Assembly (NCBI GenBank): GCA_964517675.1
Contig: CAZFEL010000001.1
Span: 9,339-73,338 of the forward strand
From: an uncultured archaeon
GTDB lineage: Archaea > Nanohalarchaeota > Nanosalinia > Nanosalinales > Nanoanaerosalinaceae
DNA length: 64,000 nt
Reading direction: 5' to 3'
The notes below the pieces were generated by a model. It made no database searches and had not been told where the DNA came from. It saw only the letters and a list, made by a program, of their open reading frames with translations. A program made the position numbers and the translations under genes. Shown piece after piece: positions 2,831 through 48,494 of this stretch. Position 1 is the stretch's first letter. Every line of letters starts with the position of its first letter.

Positions 2831-3310
2831 TCAGAGCCCGTCCAGCCCGACAGCCTCGAGGTGCTCGTCATAGTCGTCCACATCATCGAGATCGGGGTAC
2901 TCCCGTTCGAGGTCGATCGCAGCGAGGGGCTCCCTGTCGGTCCGCTCGGTGACCTGCTCAAGCACATCGAGGGTCACCGCTACCGCGACATAGGCATCAT
3001 CGAGGGCGTTGTAGAAGTCATCGATATCCCTGTCCGCCGCCGGCATCACATGGGTGTCACGACGCCTGTCATAGATCACGTCCTCATAGAGCCCATCATC
3101 GAACCGTTCATCGGCCTCCTCCAGCTGGGTGGCGATATCGCGCTCGTACCGGTCGAGCTCGGCCGCATCGAGGGCCATCCCGGAACCGTGATCGTCCGGT
3201 TCGGCTGTCTGGTCGATGGCACCGACGTACTCGATAGCCAAGGACAGTGCGGCCTCTGCCTCCCGCCTGGCCGTGTCGGCCATGTCATCGTAGAGGCGTC
3301 GTGATTGCAT
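2831..3310 (-). CDS. hypothetical acidic protein
   Basis: ORF 2831..3628, with start taken at the internal ATG (3310) because the upstream part is Arg/Pro-rich and implausible. The remainder is strongly acidic. Confidence 0.45.
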   Translation of the reverse strand: MQSRRLYDDMADTARREAEAALSLAIEYVGAIDQTAEPDDHGSGMALDAAELDRYERDIATQLEEADERFDDGLYEDVIYDRRRDTHVMPAADRDIDDFYNALDDAYVAVAVTLDVLEQVTERTDREPLAAIDLEREYPDLDDVDDYDEHLEAVGLDGL

Positions 3311-8365: not shown

Positions 8366-8388
8366 GGGTCCGTGGTCTAGTTGGTCAG
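8366..8388 (+). repeat. partial copy of the tRNA-Val 5' end (acceptor 5' strand plus D-arm, 23 nt)
   Basis: GGGTCCGTGGTCTAGTTGGTCAG is identical to nt 1-23 of the intact tRNA at 8484 and diverges afterwards. Confidence 0.8.
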
Positions 8389-8483: not shown

Positions 8484-8557
8484 GGGTCCGTGGTCTAGTT
8501 GGTCAGGACGTCGCCTTGACGTGGCGAAGGTCGGCGGTTCAAATCCGCTCGGACCCA
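8484..8557 (+). tRNA. tRNA-Val (anticodon GAC)
   Basis: Hand-folded cloverleaf: acceptor GGGTCCG/CGGACCC, D-stem GTCT/GGAC, anticodon stem TCGCC/GGCGA with loop TTGACGT, T-arm GGCGG-TTCAAAT-CCGCT, discriminator A. Confidence 0.85.
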
Positions 8558-8615: not shown

Positions 8616-8639
8616 GCGGTCCAAATCCGCTCGGACCCA
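8616..8639 (+). repeat. partial copy of the tRNA-Val 3' end (T-arm plus acceptor 3' strand, 24 nt, 1 mismatch)
   Basis: GCGGTCCAAATCCGCTCGGACCCA versus tRNA GCGGTTCAAATCCGCTCGGACCCA. Lies about 58 nt downstream of the tRNA. Confidence 0.8.
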
Positions 8640-19809: not shown

Positions 19810-20110
19810 GACCAGGCCATACAGACCGGTCTCTCTGGGGTCTGCGTGGACTCCGGCCCCGCCGGAGTGGAGCGCAGGTGACCTTCAGGGCGGACCGCTC
19901 TGGCCCAAGCCCCGATGGCTAAGCCTGGTATAGCGGCCGACTCGTAATGGGCGCGGATCGTCCGCGTCCACGGTCCTGGATGCTCTCCCCATGGCCTGGC
20001 GGGAGCCCAGGGTACGCCCAGTCTTTCCCTGGCTAGGAAAGACGCCTGTGATGAGGAGGATCATTAAGTGCTTGAGCTAACGCGATGATGATGTGAACAC
20101 CCTCCGAGCA
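19810..20110 (+). ncRNA. structured ncRNA candidate, most consistent with SRP (7S) RNA
   Basis: About 300-nt non-coding GC-rich stretch with a long-range helix (CGTGGAC ... GTCCACG) and several perfect local hairpins (GCGCGGA-TCG-TCCGCG; GTCTTTCC-ctggcta-GGAAAGAC). CCGGAGTGGAGCGCAGG resembles the SRP domain IV CCGGAAGG-AGCA motif. RNase P is disfavoured because the motif order is wrong. Confidence 0.3.
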
Positions 20111-20183
20111 GGGTTACCGGGCTGTAAAATGCAGGAGGCACCGCTAACGCGTACTGCCCGCTGCAGACGAGATATCGGCAGGT

Positions 20184-20209
20184 CCCGGGTTCAAATCCCG
20201 GTCGGGGCT
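20184..20209 (+). repeat. tRNA 3'-end-like element, copy 1 (T-arm CCGGG-TTCAAAT-CCCGG plus acceptor 3' strand TCGGGGC)
   Basis: One of three direct copies (20184, 20275, 20357). No matching 5' acceptor strand exists upstream, so it is not a full tRNA. Confidence 0.7.
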
Positions 20210-20274
20210 TCTCTTTGCCTTCTTTCGGTATGTTCGGGGATTTGATAGCCTCGAGAAAATCTCCGATTTTCGAC

Positions 20275-20299
20275 GGGTTCAAATCCCGGTCGGGGCTTC
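20275..20299 (+). repeat. tRNA 3'-end-like element, copy 2
   Basis: GGGTTCAAATCCCGGTCGGGGCTTC is identical to the core of copy 1. Confidence 0.7.
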
Positions 20300-20356
20300 A
20301 CTCCGTTCAGCTTCCGCTGCGGGAGTTCTCGACCCGTTCTTCTCTCCCGAGAAGCC

Positions 20357-20421
20357 GGGAGTTCAAATCCCGGTCGGGGCTTCTCTTTGACATCTCTCGA
20401 TATTTTCGGGATTTGATAGCT
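20357..20421 (+). repeat. tRNA 3'-end-like element, copy 3, plus shared about 40-nt downstream unit
   Basis: GGGAGTTCAAATCCCGGTCGGGGCTTC followed by TCTTTGaCaTCTcTCGaTATtTTCGGGATTTGATAGC, which also follows copy 1. Confidence 0.7.
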
Positions 20422-20525
20422 CCGGTTCTCGGGGTCCCGGGCTCGTCGTGGAGACGGATACACCGGGTCACGGCAGGACGGTGCCGGGACACATCGTTCT
20501 GTACCATGCCCGTGACAATGCAGGA

Positions 20526-28897: not shown

Positions 28898-29275
28898 TTA
28901 GCTAACGATCTCGACCTCGAAGCCTTCAGGATCTTTGACGAAGGCATACTCCCCAGGACATTCCTTCGGCGGTCGGTAGTCCTTTCCACCCGCCTCGATA
29001 GCCCTGTCGTAGGCCTCCTGGAGTGTCTCGTCCTCGTCCTTCCTGATGGCGATGTGGCCGAACCCTCGTGCCTTCTCGTAGGGCTCGTCCTCGCCGTGGT
29101 TGTGGGTCAGTTCCAGTTCGGCGTCCTGGCCCGGGATCGAGAGGAAGTACAGCGTGAACGTCTCCATCTCCTTTTTCTCCCGCAGCTCGAAGCCGAATGC
29201 CTCTTCGTAGAAGTTCACCATCGCTTCAGGGTCACCGACCCGCAGCATCGTGTGTGCGAATTTCATAAGAACCAA
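28898..29275 (-). CDS. VOC family protein (glyoxalase I / lactoylglutathione lyase-like)
   Basis: HTMLRVGD ... GFGHIAI ... EGFEVEI, a typical glyoxalase/VOC fold. Confidence 0.75.
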   Translation of the reverse strand: MVLMKFAHTMLRVGDPEAMVNFYEEAFGFELREKKEMETFTLYFLSIPGQDAELELTHNHGEDEPYEKARGFGHIAIRKDEDETLQEAYDRAIEAGGKDYRPPKECPGEYAFVKDPEGFEVEIVS

Positions 29276-29293
29276 TCACCTTGTGCCGGTCAA

Positions 29294-29303
29294 ATATTAA
29301 AAG
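29294..29303 (+). promoter_or_regulatory. TATA-box-like element upstream of the repeat-containing tRNA-Leu(CAG) leader
   Basis: ATATTAAAAG. Predicted TSS near 29330, which is the start of the most distal degenerate repeat unit. Confidence 0.3.
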
Positions 29304-29332
29304 CGTGTCTCTATCACAGACAGGTGCGGATC

Positions 29333-29562
29333 AGGAGGTAGCCACGGAGTGGTCGTCACCCTCCAGAAACAATCGGCGGGCACAGGAAGCCGAGGTAGCC
29401 AAGTGGAACATCTTGGCAACCCCCTCTGTCAAGAGGAATATAGTACGCGGAGGTAGCCAAGTGGAACATCTTGGCAACCCCCTCTGTCAAGAGGAATATA
29501 GTACGCGGAGGTAGCCAAGTGGAACATCTTGGCAACCCCCTCTGTCAAGAGGAATATAGTAC
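29333..29562 (+). repeat. tandem array of four 56-58-nt units, each beginning with a copy of the first 18 nt of tRNA-Leu(CAG)
   Basis: Units at 29389, 29447 and 29505 (58 nt) are 57-58/58 identical and start with GC(G/C)GAGGTAGCCAAGTGG. The unit at 29333 is degenerate. The array abuts the intact tRNA at 29563. Confidence 0.85.
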
Positions 29563-29645
29563 GCGGAGGTAGCCAAGTGGCCAAAGGCGCAGCGTTCAGG
29601 GCGCTGTCGGTTAGCCGTTCGCAGGTTCGAATCCTGCCCTCCGCA
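29563..29645 (+). tRNA. tRNA-Leu (anticodon CAG)
   Basis: Hand-folded: acceptor GCGGAGG/CCTCCGC, anticodon stem CAGCG/CGCTG with loop TTCAGGG, long variable arm, T-arm GCAGG-TTCGAAT-CCTGC, discriminator A. Confidence 0.9.
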
Positions 29646-29804
29646 TTCCTCCAGAGGAAGAATACTCGAACAGTACCGTAGGTGCTTTGCTCCGGACTCC
29701 TCTGTTCTGTTCTCACGACATCCTTCCAGACACACCCAAAAGGTGTCGTCACTTAACAGTAACATTTTTAAGCATCTGCTTGGAACAGGTTCGTGGAGAT
29801 CACC

Positions 29805-48144: not shown

Positions 48145-48243
48145 CATCCGCAGTTTTAAAACTGGCACACGTATTGGGCGATTGCCAGTCCATGGTCGGT
48201 TCGCCATGCGAACCGTCCGGCGCTGTCGACTGGCGCGCCAGTC

Positions 48244-48385
48244 GCGGGGGTAGCCAAGTGGCCAAAGGCGCAGGGCTTAGGTTCCCGGCTCCTTATCCGA
48301 GGAGGCGGGTTGAGAAGATCTCTGATCTTCGAACGAAGATACCCTGTCCCTCAGGGGTTCGCAGGTTCGAATCCTGTCCCCCGCA
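48244..48385 (+). tRNA. tRNA-Leu (anticodon TAG) with a putative 59-nt intron after position 37
   Basis: Exon 1 (48244-48281: acceptor, D-arm, CAGGG-CTTAGG) and exon 2 (48341-48385: A-CCCTG, long variable arm, T-arm, acceptor CCCCCGC-A) assemble into a perfect type-II cloverleaf. The intervening 59 nt contain two hairpins. Confidence 0.6.
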
Positions 48386-48445
48386 TTTCACCTTCGTTCA
48401 GTGCTTCCGCCAGTATTCGGCACCCGAGAAAGCCTGCTTTCGACG

Positions 48446-48466
48446 GTCGAATCCTGTCCCCACGCA
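48446..48466 (+). repeat. partial copy of the tRNA-Leu(TAG) 3' end
   Basis: GGTCGAATCCTGTCCCCACGCA versus tRNA GGTTCGAATCCTGTCCCCCGCA. About 60 nt downstream of the tRNA. Confidence 0.7.
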
Positions 48467-48494
48467 TTCTTCCTTTCCTCAGAACCGACCACGA

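Follow-up and report, generated by a model that had tools for sequence, protein, structure and literature searches.

A tandem array of tRNA 5′-end copies in the predicted leader of a nanohaloarchaeal tRNA-Leu(CAG) gene

tRNA genes are usually among the most stable and compact genes of a genome. Nanohaloarchaea are episymbionts of haloarchaea and belong to the DPANN group, which is known for split tRNA genes. Tandem repeats that include a piece of the adjacent tRNA gene have a bacterial precedent: at Escherichia coli tyrT, Egan and Landy in 1978 and Rossi et al. in 1981 are said to have described a 178-bp unit present in 3.14 copies downstream of tRNA-Tyr, each unit reportedly ending with the last 19 nt of that tRNA. 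Partial tRNA duplications (attL/attR) are also left behind when archaeal viruses and plasmids integrate, and pTN3-like integrases target the 5′ half of the gene (PMC8371274, PMC9897764, PMC3293823). Archaeal integrases can use tRNA 5′ halves, and their attB may reach across the D-loop (PMC8371274); an element is also documented to have left a 5′ tRNA fragment behind (PMC3293823); and the documented att scars lie 1.8-23 kb apart (PMC9897764, PMC3293823).

The locus described here lies in a window (by which we mean the whole 64-kb stretch of DNA that was analyzed) that is 60.5% G+C and encodes acidic proteins. Homologs of the neighboring glyoxalase and HerA-like proteins are named from Candidatus Nanohaloarchaeota (Nanohalococcus, Nanosalina, and QJJ-9). 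An intact class II tRNA-Leu(CAG) gene (29563..29645, plus strand; ARAGORN; Rfam RF00005, 55.7 bits) is preceded by three 58-bp units arranged head-to-tail at 29389-29562, two of them identical and one with a single mismatch. A full unit is composed of tRNA nt 1-18 and a 40-nt spacer. Unit 1 (29389..29446, plus strand) differs from the other full units by one base, C for G at position 3 (GCCGAGG...); unit 2 (29447..29504, plus strand) copies tRNA nt 1-18 exactly; and unit 3 (29505..29562, plus strand) has the same sequence as unit 2 and abuts the tRNA. On the distal side is a degenerate unit 0 (29332..29388, plus strand), which consists of the 5′-fragment-like sequence CAGGAGGTAGCCACGGAGTGG and a 36-nt spacer, and which matches the tRNA 5′ end at 13 of 18 bases, including an exact, in-register 11-mer, GGAGGTAGCCA.

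Tandem Repeats Finder reported this array as a 58-nt period at 29392-29580 (3.3 copies, 100% matches, score 378). A repeat search of the window found an 81-nt repeat in three copies, 58 nt apart, and GGAGGTAGCCA five times, at spacings of 57/58/58/58. Within the 64-kb window, the 18-mer GCGGAGGTAGCCAAGTGG, which is nt 1-18 of tRNA-Leu(CAG), occurs only at 29447, 29505, and 29563, and the 40-nt spacer only at 29407, 29465, and 29523. These searches bear out what a sequence-only reading of the same DNA had claimed, namely three near-identical units with one mismatch between them, units that open with tRNA nt 1-18 (exactly so at 29447 and 29505), and a decayed distal unit, whose in-register start is 29332 rather than 29333, a trivial correction. 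An Rfam scan of the array region returned the tRNA as its only curated match, together with a sub-threshold CPEB3 match on the tRNA body. Open reading frames of 77, 92, and 107 aa run across the array; we took them as non-acidic for a halophile and read them as spurious. The genes around the array encode a divergently oriented protein of the glyoxalase/VOC family (28898..29266, minus strand; ORF; Pfam PF00903; named nanohaloarchaeal homologs), MauE, Pterin_4a, Band_7, peptidase M29, CYTH, and others.

Like the tyrT repeat, this array consists of head-to-tail units that carry a terminal segment of the adjacent tRNA, an arrangement that unequal recombination would explain, and its units appear to lie inside the tRNA transcription unit, as judged here from the position of the promoter. 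The differences are equally clear. The tyrT repeat is bacterial, lies at the 3′ end of its tRNA, and has a unit of 178 bp, whereas the present one is archaeal, lies at the 5′ end, and has a unit of 58 bp. Unlike at tyrT, the array here stands between promoter and gene and would have to be transcribed and then removed to make the tRNA, and every tRNA gene examined here has such copies. The tyrT repeat is the nearest formal analogue of the array, and att duplications together with minisatellite dynamics are its nearest mechanistic relatives.

The array most likely sits in the 5′ leader of the tRNA, because a promoter-like box lies upstream of it, none lies next to the tRNA, and the same is true in relatives. 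The AT-rich, TATA-like box AAATATTAAAAG (29292..29303, plus strand; position weight matrix, PWM) recurs with the same spacing in three relatives (L009, L004, and L011), and TATTAAAA at 29295-29302 lies 29-30 nt upstream of the distal unit, in agreement with the earlier placement of such a box ~30 nt before the first unit. The center of the AT-rich box is 33-34 nt before position 1 of the distal fragment, which predicts a start ~6-7 nt upstream of that fragment, the usual geometry of an archaeal tRNA gene. With our PWM, which is crude because it was built from 8 tRNA promoter boxes with the box at 29295 among them, this box was the only strong TATA-like site in 29270-29650 (12 bits), and there was no other TATA-like box in 29304-29562. 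The spacing from box to distal fragment is 27-30 nt in the window and in the three relatives, and in none of the four is there a similar box 25-30 nt upstream of the tRNA itself. We consider the box at 29292..29303 the probable promoter of the tRNA-Leu(CAG) transcription unit. Of the earlier proposal that the array is transcribed as a leader, the promoter position proved to be conserved in L009, L004, and L011, and transcription itself we infer from sequence. The divergent glyoxalase gene has its ATG start codon ~30 nt from the same AT-rich box, which may be bidirectional and serve that gene as well as tRNA-Leu(CAG). A scan for sigma-70 promoters and terminators found nothing with models that are bacterial, the host being an archaeon.

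The array itself contains an AT-rich heptamer, AATATAG, once per unit in a genome of 60% G+C, which could suggest that a promoter element had been multiplied, giving starts within the array or antisense transcription toward the glyoxalase gene. We give this idea almost no weight. All in-array sites, AATATAG included, score at most 3 bits on the tRNA-promoter PWM; the heptamer is not kept in the units of L009, L011, and L004; and on the plus strand its distance would put starts within the tRNA body.

The relatives that carry the box also carry a unit. In L009, whose glyoxalase is 90% identical, the AAATATTAAAAG box is followed by 29 nt, by a single homologous 59-nt unit with the sequence GCGGAGGTAGCCAAGTG ACACAG CTTGGC GAC TCCCTTTTGTCAAGGGAGACATGGTAA, and then by the tRNA. 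L004, a 68% G+C MAG, has TATTAAAA, 29 nt, and an exact copy of its own tRNA 5′ end (18 nt, or 19 by longest exact match), which continues into CTTGCCAATCCCCC..., with the tRNA ~120 nt further on. In L011, CTATAAATG is followed by ~27 nt, a copy matching at 15/17 positions with a 35-nt spacer, and the tRNA. The units of the window and of these three relatives align, with CTTGGCAAC and CCTCTGTCAA in common and a mean column identity of 67%. The comparison of unit copy number that the earlier reading had proposed gave one unit in each of the three relatives versus three plus the degenerate one in the window. As this comparison shows, the one-unit module is old and inherited, at the same position in four lineages: each of the three relatives has a single homologous unit, placed after a conserved TATA box and before the tRNA. 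In each case the fragment matches the acceptor stem of its own lineage (GCGGAGG, GCGGGGG, GCGGGAG), and the spacers have diverged; the identity of fragment and tRNA points to either ongoing exchange with the tRNA gene (concerted evolution) or selection.

Other genomes had different arrangements. A scan of genomes with a tRNA-Leu(CAG) body pattern matched only four MAGs, L005, L006, and L007 among them. In another relative, L010 (glyoxalase 83% identical; positions 1-340), tRNA-Leu(CAG) stands inverted with respect to the glyoxalase gene, and downstream of the tRNA come three tandem 3′-end modules, one with an exact 21-nt copy and two with GCTCCGCA, each module containing unique hairpins. L006 shares the tRNA-Leu(CAG) body, and its only end copy is a degenerate one of the 3′ end, GTTCCGAATTCAAATCCTACCCCCGA, at ~3040-3075, ~45 nt downstream of the gene. 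No end copies were present at any of the five tRNAs of L005 and L007, which are MAGs of lower G+C, and six relatives found by way of the glyoxalase gene (L012-L015, L025, and L026) have no tRNA beside that gene and are hence uninformative.

Gene order around the glyoxalase gene also differs between the window (28.9-50 kb) and both L004 and L011. In L011 the glyoxalase gene adjoins the genes for LplA and Na_Ca_ex, which in the window are found at 42.9-46.9 kb, and the orientation of tRNA-Leu(CAG) to the glyoxalase gene (divergent, convergent, or co-directional) depends on the relative. The differing gene order suggests repeated rearrangement at tRNA genes.

The tandem array is genuine and occurs in nature, because independent assemblies carry the same sequence and break inside the array. 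Identical sequence was found on contigs from three other samples (JGI 3300031844, JGI 3300032101, and Logan SRR5202690), which have the same flanking genes as the window and all of which stop inside the array. Between them, these contigs confirm the tRNA junction, the degenerate unit 0, and two or more full units, one being unit 1 with its private mismatch; a third full copy is seen in this assembly only. Short-read assemblies cannot traverse the array and stop within it, and the perfect repeat stretch is 189 nt, both of which might point to an array, or a copy number, created in assembly. We regard such an artifact as extremely unlikely, given that three independent samples agree base for base and that the one-unit form stands in ordinary contigs of relatives; at most it would affect the count of two versus three full units. 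Assembly artifact, which the sequence-only reading had named as one outcome that would undo it, does not hold for the repeat itself, reproduced as it is in three independent assemblies, and bears on the third copy, which is from one assembly. Short-read metagenome contigs of this organism and its closest relative (L001, L002, L003, and L009) end at or in tRNA-flank repeats. MAGs of this clade are likely fragmented at tRNA genes, and their tRNA genes under-reported.

The array shares with CRISPR and neo-CRISPR loci short repeats that alternate with ~40-nt spacers, as well as, by its proposed origin, an insertion accompanied by a ~20-30 bp target duplication, and the spacers between the fragments at tRNA-Thr and in L010 differ from each other, as CRISPR spacers do. 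In contrast to CRISPR, however, the array spacers are identical, the repeat is a tRNA segment, and the spacers at other tRNAs are 56-95 nt long with motifs in common. No cas genes were found among the neighbors with Pfam results or in 37-49 kb. The earlier statement that this is not a CRISPR array is upheld by the three identical 40-nt spacers, only that of unit 0 being different. The array also recalls the split tRNA genes of Nanoarchaeum equitans and the tRNA fragments of Caldiarchaeum, in that orphan 5′ pieces of a tRNA occur in a DPANN-type genome. Unlike in those systems, an intact full-length gene is present and there is no complementary 3′ half as partner, and the fragment is just 18 nt long, and its end, in the D-loop, coincides with no known split or intron position. 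We conclude that the array belongs neither to CRISPR arrays nor to split tRNA genes, nor to any Rfam family.

The tRNA-Leu(CAG) gene is not alone in having copies of its own end nearby. All five tRNA genes of the window are accompanied by exact copies of at least 14 nt of their own ends, on the same strand and within 140 nt, the copies lying 60-140 nt from the genes. For tRNA-Val(GAC) (8484-8557), the 5′ end recurs exactly over 23 nt at 8366-8388, together with the CTGCA(A)G that precedes it, and the 3′ end recurs at 8618-8639 (18 nt exact, 21/22 overall); its TATA box, GGTTTAAAACGC, is at ~8222, ~255 nt upstream, with a run of unique perfect hairpins between. The tRNA-Thr(CGU) region (19908-20425) includes a 227-nt intron with weak C/D-box sRNA-like Rfam matches, and the last 23 nt of this tRNA recur in tandem at 20277-20299 and 20361-20383, with spacings of 88 and 84 nt and with differing spacers, followed by a partial repeat of the first trailer. 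tRNA-Leu(UAG), which contains an intron (48244-48385; region 48153-48461), has a degenerate 3′-end copy at ~48441-48467 and an 84-nt hairpin-rich stretch between its TATA box and the gene. The tRNA-Met region (61821-61991, minus strand) contains an exact 26-nt 3′ copy at 61821-61846, 91 nt downstream, which includes 3-4 nt beyond the gene. Default ARAGORN missed both tRNA-Thr and tRNA-Leu(UAG), and the default Rfam run also missed tRNA-Thr.

The 3′ modules are built alike, with an inverted T-loop copy, a GAGAAGATC-TCC-GATCTTCG-type hairpin, and then the tRNA fragment. The hairpin GAGAAGATC-TCY-GATCTTCG occurs three times in the window (20253-20272, 48312-48331, and 61850-61869) versus 0.02 expected, always in a tRNA context: two are in 3′ modules and one is in the tRNA-Leu(UAG) intron. 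It is also present in the distant MAG L005 (518-541), there between two protein genes, and it may be terminator-like. Hairpins are generally concentrated near these genes, with five of the nine perfect hairpins of at least 8 bp in the window located in tRNA leaders or an intron.

Comparison of the tRNA-Val locus points to rapid change. In the close relative L021 (HerA 93% identical), tRNA-Val is a simple gene preceded by a 36-nt leader, where the window has ~220 nt more upstream and an 82-nt 3′ module; the more distant relative L022 has two 3′ modules, and L024 has none. The end-copy modules thus turn over quickly, being gained or lost between close relatives. Since each of the five window tRNA genes has copies of its own ends beside it, we see the Leu(CAG) array as one instance of a habit of tRNA-end copies shared across the clade. 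In the literature searched we found no description of such arrays in Nanohaloarchaeota, and the habit appears to be undescribed.

To account for the array, we favor a sequence of four steps, which we hold with moderate confidence: an origin by insertion, an old inherited module, a recent amplification, and expression as a leader, the units being tolerated by-products. First, ~40 nt would have been inserted long ago after tRNA nt 18, with duplication of nt 1-18, as the layout suggests; the orphan 5′ fragment would have kept the old promoter and the short native leader, and the working tRNA gene would have come to lie downstream of the insert. We propose insertion with duplication of nt 1-18 because the native promoter and leader adjoin the distal fragment. 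tRNA-Val has the same layout, the leader of the simple gene in L021 aligning with the window sequence beside the distal 23-nt copy. The first unit could not have arisen by tandem duplication alone, since its spacer copies neither the native leader nor the tRNA interior. This origin step would thus require an insertion mechanism, the agent of which was not found in this analysis. Second, the one-unit module was inherited, as the relatives show by having one homologous unit in the same place.

Third, the module would recently have been amplified, in the lineage of the window, to three 58-bp units, likely through unequal homologous recombination between the direct repeats or through replication slippage. 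These exchanges could also hold the 18-nt fragments identical to the tRNA 5′ end by concerted evolution, and the outermost unit, taking part in fewer exchanges, would decay. The inner units, two identical and one with a single mismatch, beside a degenerate edge unit, are what minisatellites display, as are a copy number that varies by lineage and a repeat kept the same as the tRNA 5′ end. Unlike a minisatellite, the unit is anchored on the first 18 nt of a functional gene, within what appears to be its transcription unit. The earlier suggestion of a minisatellite generated by slippage fits well with the 58-nt period at 100% matches and with the copy number of one versus three plus one between lineages. 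Fourth, the whole array would probably be transcribed as a structured 5′ leader of ~240 nt and then removed by normal 5′ processing, presumably by RNase P.

The sequence-only reading had also suggested serial att-site relics, that is, units left by separate site-specific integrations into the 5′ part of the tRNA, with the elements later lost. Several features recommend this. The direct repeat is a tRNA end, whose length (18-30 nt) falls among those of att cores; the orphan fragment retains the native promoter, as it also does in L009, L004, and L011 and at tRNA-Val when compared with L021; archaeal integrases use tRNA 5′ halves and an element-left 5′ fragment is documented (PMC8371274, PMC3293823); end copies are found at five of five window tRNAs; and neighboring gene order is rearranged between relatives. 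We nevertheless find serial integration very unlikely. The identical 40-nt spacers mark units 1-3 as copies of one another and not as separate events, and for these three units the claim was not borne out. In contrast to attL/attR pairs, the units are tandem and nearly identical, no new promoter lies beside the tRNA, and no element or integrase lies between the repeats, which are 40 nt apart here (40-95 nt across the end copies) versus 1.8-23 kb in documented scars (PMC9897764, PMC3293823). There is no integrase or mobile-element gene within 6 kb of the array on either side or in 37-49 kb.

Searches for an integrative element sharing the spacer, another proposal of the earlier reading, found none in metagenomes, IMG/VR, PLSDB, or phage records. 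Scans of 2.9 million IMG/VR contigs with the fragment-spacer junction, the spacer, and the 18-mer gave 0 matches, a collection in which nanohaloarchaeal elements may be unsampled; the array had no match in PLSDB or the phage collection, and no attP match was found. The only metagenome match to the fragment-spacer junction, L008, was a chance match in AT-rich coding DNA. Likewise, we rejected a viral origin of the hairpin GAGAAGATCTCCGATCTTCG, as its five IMG/VR matches were chance matches in coding DNA with no tRNA nearby. Integration at an att site is a candidate for the origin of the ancestral single unit only.

We also considered whether the units could descend from the tRNA gene itself, as internally deleted tandem copies of the whole gene and its trailer. 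By eye, the spacer sequence CCTCTGTCA is like the tRNA 3′ end CCTCCGCA, and AGAGGAATATA is like the trailer AGAGGAAGAATA; similar pairs are CCTCCAGAAACAAT of unit 0 with the trailer sequence CCTCCAGAGGAAGAAT, and GAATCGTGGC of the L011 unit with the T-loop segment GAATCCTGCC. When the spacers were aligned locally with their own tRNA interior and trailer, however, no alignment reached significance (p = 0.12, 0.75, 0.99, 0.78, and 0.07). We find such a descent quite unlikely and give as little credence to the composition it would imply, a mini pseudo-tRNA made of acceptor 5′ strand, remnant hairpin, acceptor 3′ strand, and the start of the trailer. Splicing of the units through a bulge-helix-bulge motif was rejected by reasoning only: with splice sites in identical sequence, the central helix would have to be self-complementary.

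Minimum free energy folding gave two hairpins per full unit, as had been read by eye from GCCAAG/CTTGGC and CCTCT/AGAGG, the degenerate unit excepted. Hairpin 1, GCCAAG-TGGAACAT-CTTGGC (29456..29475, plus strand; also 29398-29417 and 29514-29533), pairs the 5′ strand of the tRNA D-arm with an inverted copy in the spacer. Hairpin 2 is CCTCT-GTCA-AGAGG (29481..29494, plus strand; also 29423-29436 and 29539-29552), at the position of which L009 has a different hairpin, CTCCCTT/AAGGGAG; the statistics fall short of significance. The fold of a full unit has an energy of -20.5 kcal/mol (z = -3.25), which none of 200 shuffles equaled. Degenerate unit 0 is not unusually structured (z = +0.41).

These folds, together with the persistence of a unit between promoter and tRNA in four diverged lineages, could mean that selection maintains the leader units as a functional RNA element. 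Its roles might include a 5′-end mimic that guides or buffers 5′ processing, a folding aid, protection from exonucleases, or a source of small leader-derived RNAs. The 18-nt fragment tracks each lineage's tRNA and the spacer diverges, the first 7 nt of the fragment can pair with a downstream strand (A5:U in the window vs G5:C in L004), and long, hairpin-rich tRNA leaders are general in this genome. Yet covariation, tested for two candidate structures (the two-hairpin fold and an acceptor-like closure), did not rise above shuffles (110/500 and 207/500) with ~80% of cells paired, in a set of 6 homologous units only, and the earlier idea of decoy tRNA 5′ ends found no support there. The acceptor-like closure, in which GCGGAGG pairs with CCUCUGU, was rejected: its apparent compensation between the window and L004 breaks down in L009 and L011, and its energy is less favorable by 3 kcal/mol than that of the two-hairpin fold. 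Furthermore, copy number ranges from 1 to 3+1, the extra copies are identical or one base off and would be recent and untried by selection, the close relative L021 is without any such module at tRNA-Val, and concerted evolution alone accounts for the identity of fragment and tRNA. We judge a selected function unlikely.

We favor the reading in which the units are tolerated by-products and the array is probably neutral. The counterpoint to neutrality is that the module has been kept in four lineages even though recombination between its direct repeats would be expected to remove it readily. This persistence of the single unit is the only hint of selection that we see, and, standing outside the four-step account, it could be a sign of it.

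The copies at the other tRNA genes invite a broader and more speculative proposal, which we put forward tentatively and consider rather doubtful: in this clade, short stretches of hairpin-rich DNA (40-95 nt) would repeatedly be inserted by some process within 18-30 nt of either end of a tRNA gene, duplicating the target, or else mimics of tRNA ends would be selected for pre-tRNA processing in these reduced symbionts. The agent of insertion could be a miniature integrative element mobilized in trans, or an unrecognized end-joining or template-switch route. If this were true, long structured pre-tRNA leaders and trailers with mimics of tRNA ends would be found in these organisms, and the Leu(CAG) array would be their most expanded example.

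Among known tRNA-end duplications, the array appears to be a new form, and the clade-wide pattern is the most interesting result. Five sampled tRNA genes have end copies, and in one of these genes a tandem array separates the promoter from the mature 5′ end. One practical consequence is that tRNA genes become break points in short-read assemblies of these organisms. Should the array be transcribed, the cell would have a repetitive ~240-nt leader to remove, containing three exact or near-exact imitations of the tRNA 5′ end, and the locus would be a natural test of how archaeal 5′ processing chooses its site. The gain and loss of modules between close relatives provides a tractable system for tRNA gene disruption, which bears on the origin of split and intron-containing tRNA genes.
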